DNA of 64,000 bases from Rubrivivax sp. (GCA_046348035.1 JAXMEZ010000005.1:13615-77614); one strand, 5' to 3'. Shown: positions 51,059-62,533, counted from the stretch's first letter. Notes: generated from the letters alone by a model not told the origin. Numbers and translations are program-made.

Positions 51059-52332
51059 CTAGAGCGCGTCGATGATCTCGCGCCGCTTGCGCTGGTATTC
51101 CTCTTCCGTGATGAGGGTTCGCTTCGCGCAGCCGGCGCAGCGCGAGCAGGCGGCGTTCCTGCTCCTCCAGGTAGGCCGCGTCGCGCACGCGCGGCGGCGC
51201 CGCGGAGCGGCGGCAGGCGCCGGTGCGCTGGTAGCCGCGGAAGCAGAAGCGGCGGCTGAAGCGGGCGCGCGCGCGGCGGTCGCTGTCGCCGCTGCGGCCG
51301 TTGGTGTGGACGATGTGGACGGGGCCGCCGCTGCGGCCGCGCCGTCGAGAAGCTTGGCGCTCAACGCCCGCTGCAACCAGGATTCACCGGTGCTGCTGCG
51401 CCCGGTGCCGGCGCCGCGCCGCCGGCGGCCAGACCGACCAGCACGCCCGGAGCGCAACTGCGCGCGCTGCTGCGCCTCGTCGGCAGCGAGCAGGTCGACG
51501 ATCGCCGTGGCCGGCGGCTGCGCGCTGCGGTAGCCCATCGCGAGCGCCGGCCGCCCCCGCCTCGGGTGCCGCCACGCCGAGCGGCAGGCGCGCGATCGGC
51601 GCTTCGGCCGCGACTTGCTGCCGCGCCGAGGGTGGCGATCCAGTCCGATTCGATGCTGAGCTTCGCCGCGGTGACCACGGCGATCAGCGAAGCGCCGGCG
51701 AGCGCGCGCGCGCCCACGAAGCGCGAGGGCACCGTGAACGAAACGGTGCGGCCGCGCACGCGCACGTCGGTGGCGAAGAAGATCTCGGCGTCGATGACGG
51801 CATCGACATCGGTGCCGGCCGGCACGCCGCCGTCGCCGAGTGCATCGCGCAGCTGGCGCCGCATCAGCTCCGGCCGCGGCGTCAGCACGATCGCCCGCTC
51901 CCACGCGTGCGCGGCGTCGGTGCGGGCGCGCCGCCCGGGCAACAGCGCCGTGTGCCCCGAGCCGGCGACGCGGTCGAGGTCGAGGTAGATGTCGAGGTTG
52001 AAGGCGTAGAAGCCGCGCCGCGCGAACAGCGACAGGTCCTCGTTGCCGAGCAGGCCCGACTTCACCTGCGCCGGATCGCGCACGACGTTGGCGAAGGTGG
52101 CCTCGAAGCGCAGCCGTTCGCCTTCGTCGAAGACGCGCAGCGTGCGCAGGTCGAGGTCGCCCGGCTCGACGATCGGCTCACGCGGCGGCACGAGCGTGCC
52201 GTCGCCATTGTCGTCGCCGGCCGCATCGGCGAGCTGGAGCAGCGGCTGCTGCGGCTGCGCGGGCGCCGGCAGCGGTGCGGCCAGCGACACCACCGTCAGG
52301 CACAGCGCCGCGGCGAGGAAACGGGTCTTCAT
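51059..52332 (-). CDS. Secreted glucodextranase DOMON-like domain protein with C-terminal SHOCT-like motif; frameshifted
   Basis: Signal peptide, DAAGDDNGDG...P...GDLDL, FNLDIYLD, LLPGR, WERAIVLTP, Ala-rich linker, LITEEEYQRKRREII. Confidence 0.7.
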
Positions 52333-52495
52333 CGGCAAAGCGTCCTGGCAGGAAGGCGGCGAAGCGTAAGGCAAGAAGGGCCCGCATCCGCGAGCGGATG
52401 GGGCCCCCTCGGCTTTCTCGGCTTTCTTGGCTTTCTCGGCTTGCCTATGTTGGCTCGCCTATTCGTGAAGCGGCGGCGCGAGCCGCCGGCAGCGT

Positions 52496-54295
52496 TCAGA
52501 AGATCGCCTTCACGAACGCCTTCAGCCGGTACTGCTTGATGCTCGAACGCACGCCCGTCTCGCCCGGGTCGCCGTCGCCGCTGATCCACTGCGACAGCAG
52601 CCCCGTCTCGAAGCCGGCGAGGTTGTACGCGAGGCGGATGCCGGTGATGCTCTTCTCGTTGTCGATGCTGAGCGCGGCGGTGCGGATGTCGCGCGTGTAG
52701 CGGCCGTAGGACACCGTGCCGTAGAGGTCGCCGAAGAGCTGGTTGCCGGCCGAGAGCGTGTAGCCGCTGTCGCGCGTCTCGCGGTCGTCGGCGGCGCTGG
52801 CGAGCGAGAAGTTGTTCTTGTCGAGCACGCGCTTGACCTTGGCGCCCAGCTCGATGCCGCCCATCGCCGGCACGACGTAGCCGATCTTGAACACGCCGAT
52901 GTTCGTGCGGCGGTCGTTGCTGGCGGCGAAGAAGTTCGCCAGCGCGCTGGTGACGGTCTCGCGGTTGTAGTTGTAGCCGATGCGCGTCAGCTCCAGCGAC
53001 ATCGGGATCTTCGCCACCTCGTAGTTGACGAGCACGGTGTGGCCCTTCCAGCCTTGCACCGACTCGGCCGGCGCTTCGTCGAAGTCCATGAAGTCGTTGT
53101 CGACCAGGCCGTTGGCGCCGGGCGCCAGGCCGCTGTCGCTGCGGCACACGCCGCCGCCGCTGACGAAGCACTTGGCCGACGAGGGCGCCTGCTGGTAGTC
53201 CTTGGCCGCGCCGCCGAGCCAGATCGACTGGCCCCAGCGGTGCCAGGCCGCTTCCGAGCCTTCGGTCAGCAGCACGTCGACCTCGCGGCGCGAGGCGGTG
53301 TTGCTGTAGAAGCCGGCGCCGATGTTGAAGTACTGGTAGTTGACCGACAGGCCCGTCACCGGCAGCGAAGCGAAGCTCGCATCGAGCTTGATCGCCTTGC
53401 CGCGGATATCGGACTTCGGCGAGTTGATCCACGGCTGGTCGAACAGCGGCGCCTTGTACGTCGAGCCGTACAGCGCCCCCTTGAGGTCGATGCCGGCGAC
53501 GGAGCCTTCGCCCTTCAGCATCGCCACCTGGCTCTTGGCGAACGTGCGGCTGGAGCGGCCGTTGAGGTCGGTGCCGTCGGTGTCGTCGAGGATGCGGTCG
53601 TTGAAGAACTGGTAGCTCGTGGCCAGCTTCACCGGCCCGAGCGTGCCCTTCAGCTGGCCGATGTAGACGCCTTCGTTGTACTGCGTCTCGTCGCTGCTGC
53701 AGCACGCGGCGCCCTGGCCGTAGTTGCTCTGCAGGTAGTTGGGCAGCGACAGGCGGGCGAACTCCCAGCTCGCGCCCGGTGCCGGCAGCGGCCCCTTGAA
53801 GTACAGGCCGTTGTAGTTGTCGCGGTCGATGTAGCGCACCTGGCCGACGGTGAAGGGGTCGAACGTGCCCCAGTCGCTGCTGCCGATGAGGGCCTGGTCG
53901 AGCCACTTGTAGCCCGGCGTCAGCAGCACGTAGGCGCCGCGCAGCTTCATGAACTTGCTCTGCGTCGGCCGCGCGTTGGTGTCGGTGAAGCCCTCGTTGT
54001 TGGCGAAGCCGAAGTTCGTCCAGTACGACGCCGAGCTGCGGCTTTGCAGCCGCACGCCGGCCTCGACCTGGCGCGAGATGGTGGCCTTGATGCGCAACTC
54101 GAACTCGGTCCACTGGCCCTGGTCGGAACCGCTGGCCGTGTCGGCGCTGCTGTCGCTCGCGCGGCGCTGGTCGCCGTCGAGGAACTTCATGTAGATGTTC
54201 GAGCCGCTGAAGTCGAGCTTCTGCGCCATGGCGCCGCCGGCGGCCAGGGCCAGCATCGCCGCGGCGGCGAGGGGCTTGAGAGCGTGGGTTTTCAT
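52496..54295 (-). CDS. Unassigned 599-aa outer-membrane beta-barrel-like protein (candidate alpha-glucan porin)
   Basis: Sec signal ending AMA/QK. Many alternating amphipathic strands rich in Y/F/W/G/N. C-terminus YRLKAFVKAIF ends in Phe. Co-oriented within the mal locus. Confidence 0.7.
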   Translation of the reverse strand: MKTHALKPLAAAAMLALAAGGAMAQKLDFSGSNIYMKFLDGDQRRASDSSADTASGSDQGQWTEFELRIKATISRQVEAGVRLQSRSSASYWTNFGFANNEGFTDTNARPTQSKFMKLRGAYVLLTPGYKWLDQALIGSSDWGTFDPFTVGQVRYIDRDNYNGLYFKGPLPAPGASWEFARLSLPNYLQSNYGQGAACCSSDETQYNEGVYIGQLKGTLGPVKLATSYQFFNDRILDDTDGTDLNGRSSRTFAKSQVAMLKGEGSVAGIDLKGALYGSTYKAPLFDQPWINSPKSDIRGKAIKLDASFASLPVTGLSVNYQYFNIGAGFYSNTASRREVDVLLTEGSEAAWHRWGQSIWLGGAAKDYQQAPSSAKCFVSGGGVCRSDSGLAPGANGLVDNDFMDFDEAPAESVQGWKGHTVLVNYEVAKIPMSLELTRIGYNYNRETVTSALANFFAASNDRRTNIGVFKIGYVVPAMGGIELGAKVKRVLDKNNFSLASAADDRETRDSGYTLSAGNQLFGDLYGTVSYGRYTRDIRTAALSIDNEKSITGIRLAYNLAGFETGLLSQWISGDGDPGETGVRSSIKQYRLKAFVKAIF

Positions 54296-54343
54296 GGTTC
54301 TCCTCGGTCGTTTCGTGGTTGGGTTCTGGGTGTCGGGTGTTGG

Positions 54344-55135
54344 TTACTTGCGGACCATCTTCAGCGTCGCCATCTTCTTGCTCTCGCCGTTGGGGCCGCA
54401 CTCGTAGGCCAGCATCTCGGCCTGCTTGGCGTCGGGACCGTCGAGCACGTCCATCACGTGCGGGTCGCAGTCGCCGTCGTGGCCGCCGCCGAAGCGGTGC
54501 TGGCCTTCGTACTCGTTGACCTTGCGCGTCAGGAAGTCGGTGGCGGCCGGGAAGCCCTCGTTGGACTGCATCACCACCTGGTACGACCAGCCGTCGACGT
54601 TGCCGTCGCCGCCGAGGTCGGCCAGCGGGATCGAGCCGGTGATCGTGCGGCCGCGGCCGCGCGTGAGGTTGGGCACCAGCACGTCCTTGGCCAGCGCGCC
54701 GAGCTTGGCGTCGGCCTCGCTGGTGACGCGCGCCTTCTTCTGCGGCGACAGCACGATCACCTTGTTCCACTCGTGGCCGGGCGCGAACTTCACGTTCAGG
54801 CCGGTCCACGTCTCGGCGCGGCCGCCGGGGGCGCCGGTCTTGACGAAGATGAAGATCATCTGTACCGCGAAGCCGCCGCCCATGCCCCACGGGTCTTCGA
54901 GGTTCGAGGCGACGTCGACGGCGAAGTCGACGCTGGTGCCGCTCTTGACGGCGCTGAACTTGACGATGTCGAACGAGCCGCTCTTGTAGACGCCGTCGGT
55001 GGGGTAGGTGTAGTTGCCGGGGCCCTTGTCGTCGCCGCGCGGGTCGGTGAACTCGACGGCACCGGCGCTGGCGCCGACGAGCGCCAGCGCGGCGGCCGCG
55101 GCCAGCGTGCGCAGGGTGGGTTTGAAGCGATTCAT
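54344..55135 (-). CDS. Secreted stand-alone glucodextranase DOMON-like (amylopullulanase C-terminal type) domain protein
   Basis: Signal peptide, FTDPRGDDKGPGNYTYPT...GSFD, DPWG..GGFAVQMIFIF, RFGGG.DG..DP.VMDVL. Confidence 0.8.
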   Translation of the reverse strand: MNRFKPTLRTLAAAAALALVGASAGAVEFTDPRGDDKGPGNYTYPTDGVYKSGSFDIVKFSAVKSGTSVDFAVDVASNLEDPWGMGGGFAVQMIFIFVKTGAPGGRAETWTGLNVKFAPGHEWNKVIVLSPQKKARVTSEADAKLGALAKDVLVPNLTRGRGRTITGSIPLADLGGDGNVDGWSYQVVMQSNEGFPAATDFLTRKVNEYEGQHRFGGGHDGDCDPHVMDVLDGPDAKQAEMLAYECGPNGESKKMATLKMVRK

Positions 55136-55215
55136 GCGGGTTCTCCTCTGAGTGGTCTTCGGGGGACAAGGGGACGTGAAGCGCGGCGCGGGCCCTCGGG
55201 ACGAACGGGCACACC

Positions 55216-56088
55216 TCACTTGACGCTGCCGGCGGTGAGGCCGGACACGAGGTACTTCTGCAGGAACATGAACAGGATGACCACCGGCAGCGAGACGATC
55301 ACCGAACCGGCGGCGAAGAAGCCCCACTGCGAGCTGAAGCCGCCGACGAAGAAGCGCAGCCCCACCGGCGCGGTGTAGTTGGCCTCGCTCTCCATGAACA
55401 CCGAGGCGAGGATGAACTCGTTCCACGCCGTCATGAACGAGAACAGCGCCGTGATGGCGATGGCGGGCTTCGCGAGTGGCAGGATGATGCGCAGGAAGAT
55501 CGTCTGCGCGCTGGCGCCGTCGATGCGGGCGCTCTCCTCGATGTCGATGGGAATGGTGTCGAAGTAGCCCTTGAGCATCCAGACGCTGAAAGGGATCGCC
55601 GTGGTGGCGTAGACGATGACGAGCCCGAGGAAGTTGTTCCCGAGCCCCAGCCACTTGACGATGATGATGAACAGCGGGATCAGCATCAGCGTGCCGGGGA
55701 ACATCTGCGACACGAGGAAGGCGAGCATGCCGCCCTCGCGCCCGGGGAAGCGGAAGCGGCTGAAGGCGTAGGCGGCGGTGCAGGCGAGGAACACGCCGAG
55801 CAGCGTCGTCAGCGCCGACACGATGACGCTGTTGAGCAGCCAGCGGCCGAACGGTTGCTCGGTCATCACGTCGGTGAAGTTGCGCAGCGACAAGTGCGCC
55901 GGCCACGGCACGATGCCGCGCGCCCGCTCGAGGAAGCCCGGGTCCTTCGGCAGGTCCACGAGGCCCACGCTCTGCTGGCCGGAGAAGGCGAGCGCCAGCA
56001 CCCACAGCACCGGGTACACGGTGAGCAGCGTGAAGCTGATCAGCGTGGCGTGCAGCCACAGCGGGTTCTTCGGCCGGCCGAGCGCCAT
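55216..56088 (-). CDS. malG: Maltose/maltodextrin ABC permease MalG-like
   Basis: AYAFSRFRFPGR, QMFP, WMLKGYFDTIP, EESARIDGA, FMTAWNEF, GLTAGSVK. Confidence 0.9.
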   Translation of the reverse strand: MALGRPKNPLWLHATLISFTLLTVYPVLWVLALAFSGQQSVGLVDLPKDPGFLERARGIVPWPAHLSLRNFTDVMTEQPFGRWLLNSVIVSALTTLLGVFLACTAAYAFSRFRFPGREGGMLAFLVSQMFPGTLMLIPLFIIIVKWLGLGNNFLGLVIVYATTAIPFSVWMLKGYFDTIPIDIEESARIDGASAQTIFLRIILPLAKPAIAITALFSFMTAWNEFILASVFMESEANYTAPVGLRFFVGGFSSQWGFFAAGSVIVSLPVVILFMFLQKYLVSGLTAGSVK

Positions 56089-56104
56089 TTCTCCCCCTCG
56101 CTTT

Positions 56105-58136
56105 TCAGTAGCTTTCCGTGGCGCGCGTGAGGCGGGTCTGGAAGTACCCGTACACGAGCAGGATCACGAAGATCACCGTGGAGTAGGCCGCAGCGTAGGC
56201 GTACTGGTATTGCTCGAACGCAATCTTGTACGCCTTCGTCACCAGGATCTCGTTGGCGCCGCCCGGCTCGCCGCCGGAGACGAGGAAGATGATGTTGAAC
56301 ATGTTGAAGGTCCACACCACCGAGATCACCACCGCCGGCACCAGCGTGGGGCGCAGCAGCGGCAGCGTGATGCGCCGGAACTGCTGCCAGCGGCTGGCGC
56401 CTTCGACATCGGCAGCCTCGTACATGTCGCGCGGGATCGACTGCAGCGCGCCGAGGATGACGACCATCATGAACGGGAAGCTGAGCCAGCCGTTGGTGAC
56501 GAGGCCGGTCATGAACGAGCTGACGACGCCGTCGAACCAGCGCACCGGCGCGAAGCCGAACATCTGCAAGGCCTGGTTGATGACGCCGAACTGCGGGTGG
56601 AACATGCCGCGCCACACCAGCGCGGTGATGTAGTTCGGAATCGCCCACGGCAGGATCAGCAGCACGCGGTAGGCGGTCTTGCCGCGCAGGCCCTCGGTGT
56701 TCAGCGCCAGCGCGAGCAGGAAGCCGAAGGTGACGCCGACGGTGACGTTGGTGACGGTCCAGATCACCGTCACCATCAGCGTCCAGTAGAAGTTCTGGTA
56801 GTTGACGACGGTGCCTTCGGCGCTCGTCTTGACGATGTCGAAGTCGCCGAGGATGCTGGCGAAGTTGGCCAGGCCCACCCAGCGCTCGCGGAAAGGCAGG
56901 TTCTCGTTGAAGAGCGTCGTGTCGGTGAACGCGAGCGTGATGCCGTAGAAGAACGGGAAGAACACCAGCACCAGCATGCCGAGCATCGCCGGCGCGACGT
57001 AGGCATAGGCGAGCCGGTTCGCGCGCACGGCGCGCGCTGCGCGCCGCGTAGCCCTGCACGAAGAACAGCAGCACCGCGAGGCCGACGACATCGATGACCA
57101 CGAACGCCTGGGCCAGGAACAGAGCGGTGCGAGGCGGCGGCGCGGTTCGCCTTGTCGAGCGGCCGGCCTTCGGGCGAGACGAGGCGAAGCGCGCGGCCGT
57201 AGGCGTCGGTGTCCCAGGCGCTGGCTGCTGCTCGGTCCGGCGAGCCGGTGGCGGCTCCGGTGGCGGGGGCGGCAGGGGCCAGGTCCGGCGCCCGGCGATT
57301 CCGCCGCGCCGCTGCGCAGATACGTCGCCGCGGCTGCGGCCTGAAGCGCCGCCACGGCGCCGTCGCCGGCGGCCGTGCCCGCGGCCATGCGGGCCAGATG
57401 CTGCTGCTGGAACCACGCCGCCGTGGCCAGCAGCAGGACCACTTTGCGATGCCGCGCCCGAGGTCGAAGCGCCGCTCGCTGTCGAGCGGCAACAGGGTGC
57501 CGAGCACGAGCGCGGCAGCGACCAGCACGGCTGCGAGCGCCCACGACGACGTGCCGCCGGAACCGGGCGCAGCGCCGGCATCGATCGGCGAGTTCGCCTT
57601 CCGCCAGCCGCACGCGCGCCTGCACCATGCCCTCGATGCCGTCCTTCGAGCGCAGCGGCACGCTGACGACGAGATCGCCGCGCGCACCGCCGGTGTCGCC
57701 GGCGTGCTCGACGCGCAGCGTCTCCTGCGCGCCGCGCCTTCGCTGGCGTTGGTCTCGTCGGCCGCGCGCAGTTCCTGCGCCAGGTCGAAGAGGGCTTCTC
57801 TTCGCGCTTCAGCGCGCGGGCCTTCGTCGGCCGGCCACGGTGGAGGCGCGCAGCTCGCGGCCGGCGATGACGCGCACTTCGCGCAGCGCGCCGTGCTCGC
57901 GCTGCCACAGCGCCAGCCGCGGCGCCGTCGCCGCTTCGTCGGCACCGGCCAGCGACGCGGCCACTGCGTTGGCCAGCAGCATCGCGGCGCGCTCGCGCTG
58001 GCCGGCGGCGAGGTCGCCGGCGACGCCCGCGTGCAGCCAGCCGCTGGCGGCCAAGCACGACGGCCAGCGCCGCCGCCAGGCCGAGCGGCAGCGGCGACGT
58101 GATGCGCGAGAGGGTGATCTGCCTCAGCCAGTCCAT
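56105..58136 (-). CDS. malF: Maltose/maltodextrin ABC permease MalF-like with long N-terminal extension; frameshifted in the 5' half
   Basis: Core YAYVAPA, YRVLLILPWAIP, WLSFPFMM, LQSIP.DMYEAADVEGA, WTFNMFN. An extra ~350 codons lie upstream, starting MDWLRQITLS. Confidence 0.8.
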
Positions 58137-58203
58137 CGCTGCGCAGCCGGGTTGAAGGGAAGTCGCGGGTGCAGGCGGAGTGGCTCGATCAGCCGCGGGC
58201 CAC

Positions 58204-59468
58204 TCACTTGCCCCGGCGCAGCGCGGCGACGCTTTCCTGCACGCTGCCGGCCGCTTCCTTCAGCGCCGCCTCGACGGTGGCGTTGCCCTTCACGATCTTG
58301 TTCATCGCCGTCGTGCCGGCGACCACACCATCGTCATCTCGGGCCGGTTGGGCATCGGCTCGGCGTTCTCCAGTTGCGCGCGGAACGCCTGCAGCACCGG
58401 GTCGCCGCTCACCTTCGGGTTGGCGTAGACGGCCTTGTTCGTGTGCAGCTGCCGGCCTTCGAGCGCGAGCACCAGGCCCGCCTCTTCGCCGGTGAGGTAG
58501 CGCGCGAACTCGTAGGCCACCTCCTTGTTCGCCGAGCTGGCCGCCACGTACGCGCCTTCGATCGTCATCCACGGGCGCAGCGGCTTCTTCGTCGCGTCGA
58601 GCATCGGCAGCGGCGCGAAGCCGACGTTGATCTTCTTGTCGATGTCGCCGACGAACCAGGGCCCGTTGATGACCATCGCCGCCTTGCCCTCGTTGAACAT
58701 GGAAGCGATCAGCGCCTCGCTCGGCTCGGCGGGCAGCACGCCGTCCTTGAACCACTTCATCATCTGGTTCAGCGATGCGACGTTGGCCGGGCTGTCGAGC
58801 ACGAGCTTGCCATCCTTGTCGAACACGGCGCCGCCGAAGGCGTTCATCAGCGCCGAGTGGAAGTAGAAGTTCGTGTACCAGTAGGCGAGGCCGTAGCGGC
58901 CGCTGGCGGCGTTGGTGAGCGACTTGGCCAGCTTCACCATCTCGTCCGTCGTCTTCGGCGGCGCCTTGACGAGGTCCTTGTTGTAGATGAGCGTGGGCAT
59001 CTTGTAGTTGATCGGCAAGCCCCACACGCCGCCCTTGTAGGTCATCGCCGCCAGCATGCCCGGCAGCAGGCTGTCGCGCGTGGCCTTGTCGAGAAAGAAG
59101 TCGATCGGCTCGACGGTCTTGCCGGCCTCGATCCAGCCGCCCAGGCGGTCCTGCGCGTAGATGAACACGTCGGGGCCCTTGCCGCGCGGCACCGCGGCGC
59201 TGATCTTGTCGGCGTAGGCGTCGTACGGGATCGCCAGCGTCGAGACCTTGAAGCCCTTGGCGGCAGGCGTCTTCGCGAAGTTCTCGACCACCTTCTCGAA
59301 CGCGGCCTTCTCGGCGGCGCGGTAGGCGTGCCAGACCACGAGTTCCTTGGCCGCGCCCTGCGCAAAGGCGCTGCCGGCGCCGGCCAGCGTTGCAGTGGCC
59401 AGCGCGAGGCCAAGCGCGGTGCGCCGCGAGTGCAAGGGCTGCAAGGGCTGGAAGGTGGGCTTCTTCAT
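58204..59468 (-). CDS. malE: Maltose/maltodextrin ABC substrate-binding protein MalE-like; frameshift near 58320
   Basis: RR leader, LVVWH, GPDVF..QDRLG.W, LIYNKDLV..PP.T, AMVINGPW, PMPN.PEM..VW. Confidence 0.88.
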
Positions 59469-59524
59469 CGTCGTCTCTCCTGGCTTGTTCAGTGGCGGCG
59501 GGGCTGCGTGCCGAGGAAGGCCCG

Positions 59525-60646
<1,122 letters not shown>

Positions 60647-60667
60647 CGCGTTCCTGCTCTCGTGTCT

Positions 60668-62293
60668 TCAGCGATCGGCCGGCACGACGATGCGCACCGA
60701 CTTCGGCGCCAGCGTGATGCGCAGCCGGCCTTCGCCGACGCTGGCCGGCTCGCCGCTCAGGCTGTCGCGCGCGGCCGCCGCGGCCCAGGCCGGCGGCAAG
60801 GCGATGTCGGCGGCGAGCGCCTCGTCATCGCGGTTGGCGAGCACGATCACCGCGTCGCCGCTGGCGGCATCGCGGCGCATGAAGGCGAGCACGCGGTCGG
60901 CCGGCTGCGTCAGCATCGTGTAGTCGCCGCGGCGCAGGGCGGGGTGCGACAGGCGGATGCGGATCAGCTGGCGGTAGGTCTCGCGCAGCGCTTCGTCGCG
61001 CGCCACGCCGCGGCCGGGCAGGATGTCGCGCTCGCCCCAGGGCATGTCGTTGCGGTTGAACGGCCACACGTTGCCGCCGCGGGCGACCTCTTCGCCGTAG
61101 TAGACGACCGGCATGCCCAGCGACGTCATCTGCAACGCCACGCACAGGCGGAAGCGCTGCCGGTCGCCGCGCAGGTTGGCCAGCATCATCGGCTCGTCGT
61201 GGCTCGAGAGGTAGTGCGCCAGCACGTGGCCGGCGCGCACCTGGTGCCGGCCGCGCAGGTAGGCGGCATAGGCGACGCTGCGGCCACGGCCCGTGACCCA
61301 GCCTTCGCAGCTGCCCTTGAAGCTGAAGTCGAAGCCGGCATCGACCTCGTCGCGCTCGAAGAAGGCATCGAGCGACTGTGCCGTGCCGCCCCAGTCCTCG
61401 GCAAGCAGGAAGAAACCAGGGCCGAGCTCGGCGCGCGTGCGCCGCCGGTGTTCCTGCCACACCGCGCTCTCGACGTGCTTGTAGGTATCGAGGCGGAAGC
61501 CGTCGATGCCGGAACGCCGGGCGAGCGCGATGTTGGCATCGAGGAGGTAGTCGCGCACTTCGGGAAGGTCGGTGCGAAAGTCGGGCAGGCCGCCGACCGC
61601 GCATGTCACCGGGTTGGCGTCGCAGTTGCCTTCGCCCACGCGCAGCCACGGCACGCCGGCGGCCGTGCGGCGCGCGGTGTAGGCGTTCGTGTAGCCGGCG
61701 TGATTGACGACGACATCGAGCAGCACCTTGATGCCGCGGCGATGCGCTTCGTCGACGAGGCGCTTCAGGTCGGCCTCGGTGCCGAAGTGCGGCTCCATCT
61801 GCGTGAAGTCGGCGATCCAGTAGCCGTGGAACGGCTCGTGCATGAAGCTGCCCGCGCCCGGCGCCGTTGCCGTCATGCCCCGCGCCTGCTGCAGTTGCAC
61901 GGGGTTGATCCACAACGCCGTCACTCCGAGGCTCTTCAGCTCGTCGAGCTGCGCCGTCAGGCCCTTCAGGTCGCCGCCGTGCCAGCCGCCGGGATTGCGG
62001 CGATCGACGCCACGGTTGTTGGTGGGGTCGCCATCGGCGAAGCGGTCGATGAGGACGAAGTAGAGGACTTCGTCGGCCCAGGTGCGAGAGGCCAGCGGTG
62101 GCAGGTCGGCAGCAGCGGCCGGTGACGGCGCAGCGACCGGCGTCGGGTTGGTACCGGTGGGTGCCGTGCAGGCAGCCAACAGCAGCGAAAGCGTCCACGG
62201 CACCAGCATCGCGCACGGTCTCGCGGCGATGTCGCGCAGCAGTGACGGCCGCCCGCGGGCGCCCGCCGTGCCTCTACCGCCGCGCTGGAACAT
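60668..62293 (-). CDS. GH13 alpha-amylase-family glycoside hydrolase, probable lipoprotein
   Basis: YFVLIDRFADGD, FHGYW, LDVVVNH, GFRLDTYKHV (nucleophile Asp), LAEDW (Glu), SSHDE (Asp), YYGEE. Lipobox LLAAC. Start uncertain (62208-62305). Confidence 0.92.
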   Translation of the reverse strand: MFQRGGRGTAGARGRPSLLRDIAARPCAMLVPWTLSLLLAACTAPTGTNPTPVAAPSPAAAADLPPLASRTWADEVLYFVLIDRFADGDPTNNRGVDRRNPGGWHGGDLKGLTAQLDELKSLGVTALWINPVQLQQARGMTATAPGAGSFMHEPFHGYWIADFTQMEPHFGTEADLKRLVDEAHRRGIKVLLDVVVNHAGYTNAYTARRTAAGVPWLRVGEGNCDANPVTCAVGGLPDFRTDLPEVRDYLLDANIALARRSGIDGFRLDTYKHVESAVWQEHRRRTRAELGPGFFLLAEDWGGTAQSLDAFFERDEVDAGFDFSFKGSCEGWVTGRGRSVAYAAYLRGRHQVRAGHVLAHYLSSHDEPMMLANLRGDRQRFRLCVALQMTSLGMPVVYYGEEVARGGNVWPFNRNDMPWGERDILPGRGVARDEALRETYRQLIRIRLSHPALRRGDYTMLTQPADRVLAFMRRDAASGDAVIVLANRDDEALAADIALPPAWAAAAARDSLSGEPASVGEGRLRITLAPKSVRIVVPADR

Positions 62294-62500
62294 TGCCACG
62301 TCCACCCCCGGGCTGCCGGCAGCGGGACGAAGGCGCTTATCCTCTGCCGCTTGCCACTGTGATTGAGCCGGCGACTGCCGGATTGAGATAGCTCAAGACG
62401 GCTGGCCGTTGGCGCATCACTGTGCTGCCGGCGCAACTCGGCGCATTCTGTTCTGCGGTGCGGTCGACGAGACGCGCGGCTGTCGCGTTCGGGACCCCAG

Positions 62501-62533
62501 AAAAAGAAAGGCAGGGTTCGCACCCTGCCTTTT
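62501..62533 (-). terminator. Rho-independent terminator
   Basis: Minus strand AAAGGCAGGGT-GCGA-ACCCTGCCTTT followed by CTTTTT, about 60 bp after the 62594 stop. Confidence 0.85.

Follow-up and report, generated by a model that had tools for sequence, protein, structure and literature searches.

The 64,000-nucleotide (nt) stretch of Rubrivivax sp. DNA analysed here (GCA_046348035.1, JAXMEZ010000005.1:13615-77614), which we call the window and to which all coordinates refer, carries on its minus strand a cassette of eight genes that runs from position 62305 to 51059. In order of transcription these are GH13, malK, malE, malF, malG, DOM1, barrel and DOM2 (Table 1). A glycoside hydrolase and the parts of a MalEFGK2-type ATP-binding cassette (ABC) importer are thus encoded next to an outer-membrane barrel protein that is flanked by two secreted Glucodextran_C proteins, and it is these last three, and the route that they may offer to alpha-glucans across the outer membrane, that concern us here. 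All eight co-oriented genes named in an earlier annotation of the window (the original prediction) are present on this strand, but three of them, malE, malF and DOM2, are frame-broken as assembled, which that annotation did not remark.

The G+C content of the region is about 70%, giving rise to many spurious long open reading frames, and the true genes were chosen by their family matches and third-position GC. The spacers measure 16-80 nt from GH13 through barrel and about 160 nt ahead of DOM2, an operon-like packing from which the cassette is probably co-transcribed. A promoter scan of the region found no sigma-70-like site.

Table 1. Genes and other features of the cassette, with their positions in the window.
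Feature	Coordinates	Strand	Evidence or detail
Terminator-like hairpin followed by T-run, upstream of GH13	62507..62532	-	11-pair stem, 6 GC pairs
GH13, alpha-amylase/neopullulanase-like	60668..62305	-	Pfam Alpha-amylase, 165 bits, E 5e-48; Malt_amylase_C
malK, MalK-type ABC ATPase	59525..60646	-	Pfam ABC_tran, OB_MalK, TOBE_2
malE, MalE/CycB-type solute-binding protein	58204..59468	-	SBP_bac_1, E 2e-41; NCBIfam MalE, 182 bits
malF, long MalF-type permease	56105..58136	-	BPD_transp_1; NCBIfam MalF over profile positions 265-517
malG, MalG-type permease	55216..56088	-	BPD_transp_1; NCBIfam MalG, 177 bits
DOM1, secreted stand-alone Glucodextran_C (DOMON/CBM9-like) protein, 263 aa	54344..55135	-	PF09985, 192 bits, E 1e-56
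barrel, outer-membrane barrel protein, 599 aa	52496..54295	-	AlphaFold2 model; partial Pfam Porin_4 match
9-nt tandem repeat, 3.9 copies, in the barrel-DOM2 spacer	52408..52442	.	unit CTCGGCTTT on the plus strand
DOM2, secreted Glucodextran_C protein with Ala/Pro-rich linker and SHOCT-like C-terminal helix pair	51059..52332	-	PF09985, 73 bits, E 3e-20

The barrel protein begins with a signal peptide and ends in Phe; 22 strands are predicted, and there is no plug. The strand count rests on an AlphaFold2 model built on a 38-sequence alignment, in which strands were assigned by DSSP (predicted local distance difference test score (pLDDT) 83, predicted template-modelling score (pTM) 0.83). In this model strand 1 (residues 26-41) directly follows the signal peptide, the periplasmic turns comprise 2-8 residues, and the outer loops are long, the conserved loop L7 alone taking up 90 residues (326-415). 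Trp, Phe, Tyr, Arg and Asp are prominent among the invariant residues, which cluster in loops L3 and L7.

To what family, then, does this protein belong? The original prediction left it unassigned, and no functional family does fit; there is, however, a partial match of residues 465-575 to Pfam Porin_4 (PF13609; 32.0 bits against a cut-off of 27, over profile positions 139-241 of 310). This is the only Pfam match of the barrel at E<=0.01, the same family is precomputed for some of its homologues, and by sequence it places the protein in the porin superfamily without pointing to any functional family. Searched with the barrel profile, the full set of PDB chains gave no match at E<=10. Structural comparison was equally unselective: Foldseek returned generic barrels only, with TMq at most 0.41 (MtrB, TonB-dependent transporters and ushers), and in VIA-align the Z scores fell from 15.4 to 11 without a break through OprD-type channels, maltoporin, MtrB, CymA, ushers and the barrels of TonB-dependent transporters. 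Because both lists are flat and made up of unrelated barrels, a specific structural family was dropped.

Two families call for closer comparison, since the original prediction held the pore to be something other than LamB or a TonB-dependent receptor. Pfam, the strand model and the fold searches all agree with it. No match to LamB, OprB, Plug or TonB_dep_Rec is found within the locus, and LamB (PF02264) is not found in the whole genome (4.3 Mb in 139 contigs), which is 61% complete. The barrel does not match the LamB profile and is modelled with 22 strands rather than the 18 of LamB; maltoporin 1mpr aligns to it over 307 residues with a Z score of 14.3, tied with many unrelated barrels. Its 22 strands do equal the number in TonB-dependent transporters, but there is neither plug nor recognisable TonB box, strand 1 coming directly after the signal peptide and both plug and receptor profiles going unmatched, and the barrels of such transporters align over 370-400 residues with Z scores of 11-13.7, no higher than other barrel types. 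The modelled barrel would thus have the size of a TonB-dependent transporter, with no plug of its own and no described functional family. Its family is small (145 clusters at 50% identity with E<=1e-3, and 29 at 1e-30, among 1.8 billion representatives), and all homologues named by their source databases are labelled 'hypothetical protein'.

The two neighbours of the barrel both score above the cut-off of 22 bits for Glucodextran_C (PF09985). DOM1, with orthologues of about 261 aa that have type-I signal peptides and a mean column identity of 63%, adopts in its model (pTM 0.82) the fold of glucodextranase domain C: it superimposes on residues 775-1018 of 1ulv with a Z score of 21.3 and a root-mean-square deviation of 2.8 Å for 218 aligned residues. 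The second structural match is to residues 252-569 of Sas6, a carbohydrate-binding module (CBM) of family CBM74 (Z 8.4), which is CBM9-like and binds single and double helical alpha-glucan (bioRxiv 10.1101/2022.11.20.514607). Lower matches, all with low scores, include the heme-DOMON gamma subunit of ethylbenzene dehydrogenase (2ivf_C, Z 5.5) and CBM9 (1i82, Z 4.8), and source databases call the homologues 'carbohydrate-binding DOMON domain-containing protein'. Because the modelled fold resembles both glucodextranase domain C and CBM74, a glucan-binding role for DOM1 is plausible. The two most conserved motifs of DOM1, GPGxYxY at residues 38-44 and NEYEGQHRFGGG at residues 207-220, are the regions of lowest model confidence (pLDDT <50), as would be expected of loops that take on order only once a ligand, a metal or the barrel is bound.

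DOM2 has the same Glucodextran_C fold, followed by a variable low-complexity linker and a SHOCT-like end that is conserved in proteobacteria. This tail scores 16.1 bits against SHOCT (PF09851; E 0.009) in the window and 24.5 in an intact orthologue (L008:13104-14378), where the cut-off is 27, and its motif is missing from DOM2 of the two loci L058 and L074. Both DOM1 and DOM2 have plain type-I signal peptides, and no lipobox or known surface-export signal was seen in proteobacterial DOM1 proteins. Stand-alone Glucodextran_C (DOMON-like) proteins are numerous and uncharacterised, and the cassette gives them a first functional context.

What ties DOM1 to the barrel is, first, gene order. A pattern scan with one genome per species gave 54 loci, onto which all eight proteins were mapped. 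As a descriptive count, a DOM1-type gene lies directly upstream of the barrel gene in every one of the 53 loci with upstream sequence, Myxococcota included, and in 45 of 50 a DOM2-type gene follows within 1.5 kb on the downstream side. Of the 41 loci with at least 7.9 kb upstream, 38, from three proteobacterial classes, preserve the order GH13-malK-malE-malF-malG-DOM1. The linkage of barrel and DOMON genes to mal genes elsewhere, which had been set beforehand as the test of the original prediction, is borne out by this order and by the adjacency of DOM1. Even very distant barrels, of 27-30% identity (L057, L074 and L075), have a Glucodextran_C gene directly upstream, and in L074 the order is MalK fragment, DOM1, barrel, DOM2.

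The second line of evidence comes from natural fusions. A search with the barrel as query found two proteins, P0147 (877 aa) and P0168 (959 aa), in which a signal peptide is followed by a Glucodextran_C domain (E 1e-46 and 3e-49, respectively), some 30 linker residues rich in Pro and Ala, and then the barrel from its strand 1 onwards. They are not artefacts of gene calling: neither has a signal peptide inside the chain, the linker leads without a break into strand 1, and P0147 occurs on two contigs, on both of which a GH13 gene follows it. Near P0168 there are a GH15 gene and a weak, below-threshold GH13 match. Both fusions are from metagenomic bacteria of two distant lineages (an example of a fusion locus is L073:2152-5031). 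Apparent DOM1-barrel fusions in the Myxococcota loci L058 and L059 were, by comparison, excluded, the matches being in different frames and the long open frame a GC-rich artefact. The fusions constitute Rosetta-stone evidence, read from sequence, that DOM1 and the barrel would form one working unit. They attach the domain at the N-terminus of the barrel, which by the usual topology is periplasmic and is where TonB-dependent transporters bear their plug.

The third line is a co-fold of mature barrel with mature DOM1, in three runs and with three controls. Such a co-fold of barrel and DOMON protein had been proposed with the original prediction, and for the DOM1 pair it lends weak support, with ipSAE values of 0.62, 0.57 and 0.45 (median 0.57) against 0.00 for all three controls; partner pLDDT was 85 or higher, and the runs had 74% or more of their contacts in common. 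In calibration 58 of 80 solved complexes and 2 of 110 mismatches came up to the mark, and scores of 0.60 or below are often wrong where there is no good prior. Here adjacency and the fusions provide a strong prior, and because the co-fold can be combined with it we consider that DOM1 is probably in physical association with the barrel. The picture of the DOMON proteins as free helpers, drawn in the original prediction, is in view of the fusions and the weak co-fold pass probably not correct. As to where DOM1 sits, a plug in the barrel lumen is conceivable, and we would put its chances somewhat below even; a tethered periplasmic adaptor or ratchet would be at least as likely, because the Pro/Ala hinge is OmpA-like.

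How widely is this arrangement distributed? Carriers include Rubrivivax, Rhodoferax, Ideonella, Gallionella, Sideroxydans, Sideroxyarcus, Thiobacillus, Hydrogenophilales, Sinimarinibacterium and other Gammaproteobacteria, as well as a Rhodospirillaceae metagenome-assembled genome (MAG) with a barrel of 29% identity. Rubrivivax, Rhodoferax, Ideonella, Gallionella, Sideroxydans and Thiobacillus are here counted as Burkholderiales in a broad sense; by source name the homologues are from Rubrivivax sp. or from Burkholderiaceae or Burkholderiales MAGs. The Myxococcota, a guess of the original prediction, do carry the DOM1-barrel core beside GH13 genes (L058, L059 and L063), with malEFG a few kb off in L058. 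Among near relatives the family is patchy: of 25 genomes of the genus 5 have the barrel, and of 400 genomes sampled from the order only 2 do. In the latter sample, which is unbiased, two strong PF09985 genes were found only in the two barrel-positive genomes, where they flank the barrel. The five other PF09985 matches in the 400 genomes are weaker and single; their open frames span 250-950 aa, four of the five at 549-949 aa, as would fit domains of larger proteins. From these comparisons of gene content the invariant module is DOM1-barrel, usually with DOM2, and its usual context is alpha-glucan hydrolases and a MalEFGK-type importer.

Several further observations concern the module elsewhere. 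The distant DOM1-barrel(-DOM2) modules at L057:9204-11896 and L074:1616-5532 adjoin Ser/Thr protein kinase genes and not a full mal cassette. A third Glucodextran_C gene follows DOM2 in some loci of the Thiobacillus/Hydrogenophilales type (L043:13191-13946, L045:13076-13879 and L052:13247-13759). In a Rubrivivax MAG (L062:9500-11500) GH13 and the mal genes are intact and DOM1, barrel and DOM2 are short fragments, so that the outer-membrane module there looks decayed or deleted. Among 14 control genomes, that of Thermus thermophilus alone has a PF09985 match.

The remaining five genes give the module its alpha-glucan context. The nearest solved structures to the GH13 protein are Geobacillus/Anoxybacillus amylases (4e2o, E 6e-66, and 5a2a), followed by TVAII neopullulanases. 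Its translation contains the motifs DVVVNH, GFRLDTYKH, EDWG and SHDEP, which we take to be GH13 conserved regions I-IV, so that catalytic domain, regions I-IV and the catalytic Asp/Glu/Asp triad are all in place. The likely start is near 62209, followed by a lipoprotein-type signal with the lipobox L-A-A-C. This lipobox is confined to the clade of the window and a few others (L010-L012, L048 and L061). Because most orthologues carry ordinary signal peptides, lipid anchoring would be a lineage-specific feature and no defining trait of the system, and the enzyme is most simply placed in the periplasm in most lineages; the membrane-anchored hydrolysis of the original prediction does not generalise.

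All the expected parts of the importer are there: a binding protein, a pair of BPD_transp_1 permeases and an ATPase bearing the OB/TOBE tail of MalK. The Pfam and NCBIfam matches to malE and malF were obtained for 58302-59468 and 56105-57661, respectively. NCBIfam MalE, MalF, MalG and MalK are the best or near-best models for the four proteins (malG is 86-92% identical to its orthologues), but because every score is below its equivalog cut-off they do not fix the exact substrate. For MalK itself the score is 405 bits, under the equivalog cut-off, and the UgpC subfamily model is passed. The identity of malF given in the original prediction stands, but it passed over an extension of about 340 aa at the N-terminus, peculiar to the cassette, that lies at 57100-58136 and precedes the conserved core (56105-57100). 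In intact orthologues, which are 637-655 aa long (an intact extension is seen at L024:6367-7380), this consists of a transmembrane segment, about 150 non-hydrophobic residues, two or three further transmembrane segments and about 80 more residues; we infer from this sequence pattern that the stretch of about 150 residues is periplasmic. A Pfam search with the extension gave no match, and in a word-limited search its only matches were 47 MalF proteins of like length (593-663 aa), several of them encoded on contigs that also carry the cassette.

Taken together, these data lead us to favour, with moderate confidence, the view that the conserved cassette imports alpha-1,4-glucan oligosaccharides (maltodextrins and possibly cyclodextrins) through a dedicated channel with a bound, periplasmic glucan-binding partner. 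Linear and possibly cyclic alpha-glucan oligomers would cross the outer membrane through the barrel, acting as a substrate-specific channel in which the conserved aromatic and charged residues would lie in extracellular or lumen loops L3 and L7. DOM1, exported to the periplasm, would be held at the periplasmic end of the barrel, to which in the fusion proteins the Pro/Ala linker to strand 1 would tether it. There it may bind the emerging glucan chain, act as a gate or ratchet and pass the chain on to be trimmed by GH13, which would be mostly periplasmic and, in this lineage, lipid-anchored. The MalE/CycB-type protein would then bring the products to MalF-MalG-MalK2 for import. DOM2 and the N-terminal extension of MalF would be further envelope parts that may join the outer-membrane unit to the importer.

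A bolder form of this proposal, which we offer tentatively and regard as rather unlikely, is that the cassette represents a third architecture for glycan passage: a 22-strand barrel in which the plug is replaced by a glucan-binding CBM9/DOMON-like domain, acting in trans or fused, that serves as a gate or ratchet without TonB, with DOM2 and the extended MalF completing a trans-envelope relay.

A number of points weigh against the import route that we favour. It is built from sequence and predicted models. The CBM74 match of DOM1 (Z 8.4) is only moderately over background, and we know of no demonstrated sugar binding by a Glucodextran_C domain. The co-fold returned no interface, so that it does not place DOM1. 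All the loci were collected by way of the barrel and are mutually related, so that the counts given above overstate independence, and around the DOM1-barrel pair of one of them, L057, neither GH13 nor mal genes lie within 10 kb. Lastly, with malE, malF and DOM2 frame-broken, the cassette may not function in this strain.

This last point requires that the state of the present copy be considered. Indels were called against 2-4 orthologues. In malE a 1-nt deletion at 58314 puts the last ~35 codons in another frame; the extension of malF has about eight frame-breaking indels between 58053 and 57121; and DOM2, with about five between 51624 and 51117, is read in three frames. GH13, malK, malG, DOM1 and barrel have none. 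One explanation is that the cassette is decaying here, the indels in malE, the 5' part of malF and DOM2 being real and the transporter non-functional. Such decay would account for the clustering of about 14 frame-changing indels in three genes, and for the split malF and split DOM2 that are likewise present in both sister assemblies (L071 and L072, from the one population and 98.7% identical); a clearly decayed cassette, moreover, exists elsewhere, at L062. The 61% completeness of the genome was considered as a sign of an indel-rich assembly and dropped, since the assembly simply lacks rpoB and rpoC: the figure reflects truly missing genes and shows no genome-wide excess of frameshifts, which again is on the side of decay. 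Against this, the indels vary among the three sister assemblies at the same sites. At several of them L071 and L072 depart both from the window and from one another: at 57445 there are three versions in the three assemblies, and the malE deletion is present in L072 and missing in L071, the only one of the three with malE intact, as well as in L010, L011, L012 and L029. The stretches that bear the indels are also the most GC-rich (0.76), and in the five intact genes the sisters differ mainly by single-base substitutions, many of them G/C exchanges (codon position unsorted). Because the sisters disagree at the same sites and the affected stretches are the most GC-rich, we consider consensus or strain-mixture errors to be the likely source of the indels, and real decay to be doubtful.

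A different objection is that the barrel could be an ordinary passive glycoporin, an analogue of LamB or OprB, with DOM1 and DOM2 as independent soluble periplasmic glucan-binders that occupy a MalM-like position and are not bound to it. The partial Porin_4 match and the generic porin-like structural matches, maltoporin 1mpr (Z 14.3) among them, would fit such a protein, as would the plain type-I signal peptides of DOM1 and DOM2 and the weakness of the barrel-DOM1 co-fold. The natural fusions in two distant lineages are not explained in this way, however, and neither is the adjacency of DOM1 in 53 of 53 loci, which holds even where the mal genes are elsewhere or absent; the three co-fold controls were, moreover, all 0.00. 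Known passive glycoporins have 12-18 strands, and a plug-less barrel of 22 strands would be much wider than any of these. We consequently regard a passive porin with unattached helpers as unlikely.

Less probable still is that DOM1 reaches the cell surface with the help of the barrel or through it, to act as an outward, starch-capturing lid or passenger in the manner of SusD on SusC or of an autotransporter passenger. Classical autotransporters have an N-terminal passenger and a C-terminal barrel, and the order of the fusions (domain, flexible linker, C-terminal barrel) matches theirs; a CBM-like fold would suit the capture of polymeric starch outside the cell, and conserved residues of the barrel lie in extracellular loops. 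The proteobacterial DOM1 proteins, however, have no lipobox or known surface-export signal, the usual topology rule puts the N-terminus of the barrel in the periplasm, and Pro/Ala-rich hinges typically tether periplasmic domains, as in OmpA. Finally, that barrel and DOMON proteins serve to export an alpha-glucan or to anchor it at the cell surface, and not to import one, is very hard to credit: the large barrels AlgE and PelB are among the generic structural matches and glucodextranase domain C has been proposed as a cell-wall anchor (Pfam description), but the cassette encodes a binding-protein-dependent importer and a hydrolase, and the conserved block contains no glycosyltransferase, synthase or Wza/Wzc-type gene.

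The surroundings of the cassette can be described briefly. Downstream lie unrelated genes for a class IV aminotransferase and a GT25 glycosyltransferase, and upstream there is an equally unrelated weak TPR match. Terminator-like sites are no more numerous in the region than in shuffles, so that the hairpin ahead of GH13 is only a positional cue to the end of the preceding unit and the upstream limit of the cassette. The tandem repeat between barrel and DOM2 adjoins a GC-rich hairpin and is lineage-specific, being missing from the alignment in the nearest other species (L010 and L011). In many relatives (L013, L017, L019, L024, L026, L027 and L028) a second, divergent GH13 gene, 25-28% identical to that of the cassette, lies on the opposite strand about 1.5 kb downstream of DOM2 in convergent orientation; in the window the aminotransferase gene is found at that place.

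How does the cassette compare with known systems? Searches of the literature on Glucodextran_C/PF09985, on DOMON with maltodextrin or porin, and on homologue product names found nothing on it, in keeping with the view of the original prediction that the arrangement had not been characterised. The closest parallel in layout is the mal regulon of E. coli (malK-lamB-malM, malEFG and malS), in which the channel gene shares an operon with malK, a periplasmic protein without assigned role (MalM) is encoded beside the channel, and a periplasmic GH13 enzyme (MalS) accompanies a MalE-MalFGK2 importer. The components differ, however. LamB has 18 strands, whereas the barrel is modelled with 22 and has no LamB match in Pfam; DOM1 and DOM2 belong to Glucodextran_C and are no homologues of MalM; the GH13 enzyme is nearer to Geobacillus/Anoxybacillus amylases than to MalS; and MalF bears a different N-terminal extension, of ~340 aa.

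The cym system of Klebsiella oxytoca likewise has a dedicated non-LamB channel for bulky alpha-glucans, CymA, together with a CycB/MalE-type importer (CymE/F/G/D) and a neopullulanase/cyclodextrinase-like GH13 enzyme. CymA, however, is a 14-strand monomer gated by its own N-terminus, whereas the barrel of the cassette is modelled with 22 strands and its candidate gate or partner is a separate domain of 237 aa; CymA (4d5b) is just a generic structural match to it, with a Z score of 13.9. In gltBFGK-oprB of Pseudomonas the gene for a carbohydrate-selective porin ends a sugar ABC importer operon, but OprB belongs to another, 16-strand porin family (the barrel has no PF04966 match, and 4gf4 reaches a Z score of just 11.0), and this operon has neither DOMON partner nor hydrolase.

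The TonB-powered systems, MalA of Caulobacter and SusC/SusD of Bacteroides, resemble the cassette in combining a 22-strand barrel with an N-terminal globular domain, as do the fusion forms here, and in having a glycan-binding partner encoded beside the barrel. The barrel of the cassette, in contrast, has no Plug, TonB_dep_Rec or recognisable TonB box; its N-terminal domain is a CBM9/DOMON-like sandwich that is usually a separate protein; and SusD has a lipobox, which DOM1 does not. A precedent for a large barrel whose lumen or periplasmic end is filled by a second, separately encoded protein is provided by LptD-LptE, which differs in serving lipopolysaccharide insertion, in its unrelated sequences and in the lipoprotein nature of LptE; a lumen position for DOM1 is, moreover, only a candidate. 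The domain itself has its nearest counterparts in domain C of Arthrobacter globiformis glucodextranase (1ug9/1ulv; Z 21.3, 28% identity) and, as next-best match, the CBM74 of Ruminococcus bromii Sas6 (7uwu; Z 8.4). These are modules of large secreted Gram-positive enzymes or scaffolds, whereas the domain of the cassette stands alone or is fused to a barrel, in diderms.

By analogy, the logic of the cassette, a dedicated outer-membrane channel coupled to an ABC importer, would be the known one of mal, cym and oprB. For an obligate DOMON-type partner of a barrel we found no precedent in the literature and know of none. The occurrence of the cassette in wastewater bacteria of the Rubrivivax/Leptothrix type and in iron-oxidising Gallionellaceae bears on carbon uptake in those ecosystems, and for at least one carrier, Rubrivivax sp. 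RP6-9 (locus L026), there is a complete isolate-type genome record, so that genetics and biochemistry may be feasible. To our knowledge, there are only two solutions to the passage of large oligosaccharides through the outer membrane, the passive one of the LamB/CymA type and the TonB-powered one of the SusC/MalA type. A wide, plug-less barrel that is always accompanied by a CBM-like domain, and sometimes fused to it, offers a directly testable candidate for a further solution.

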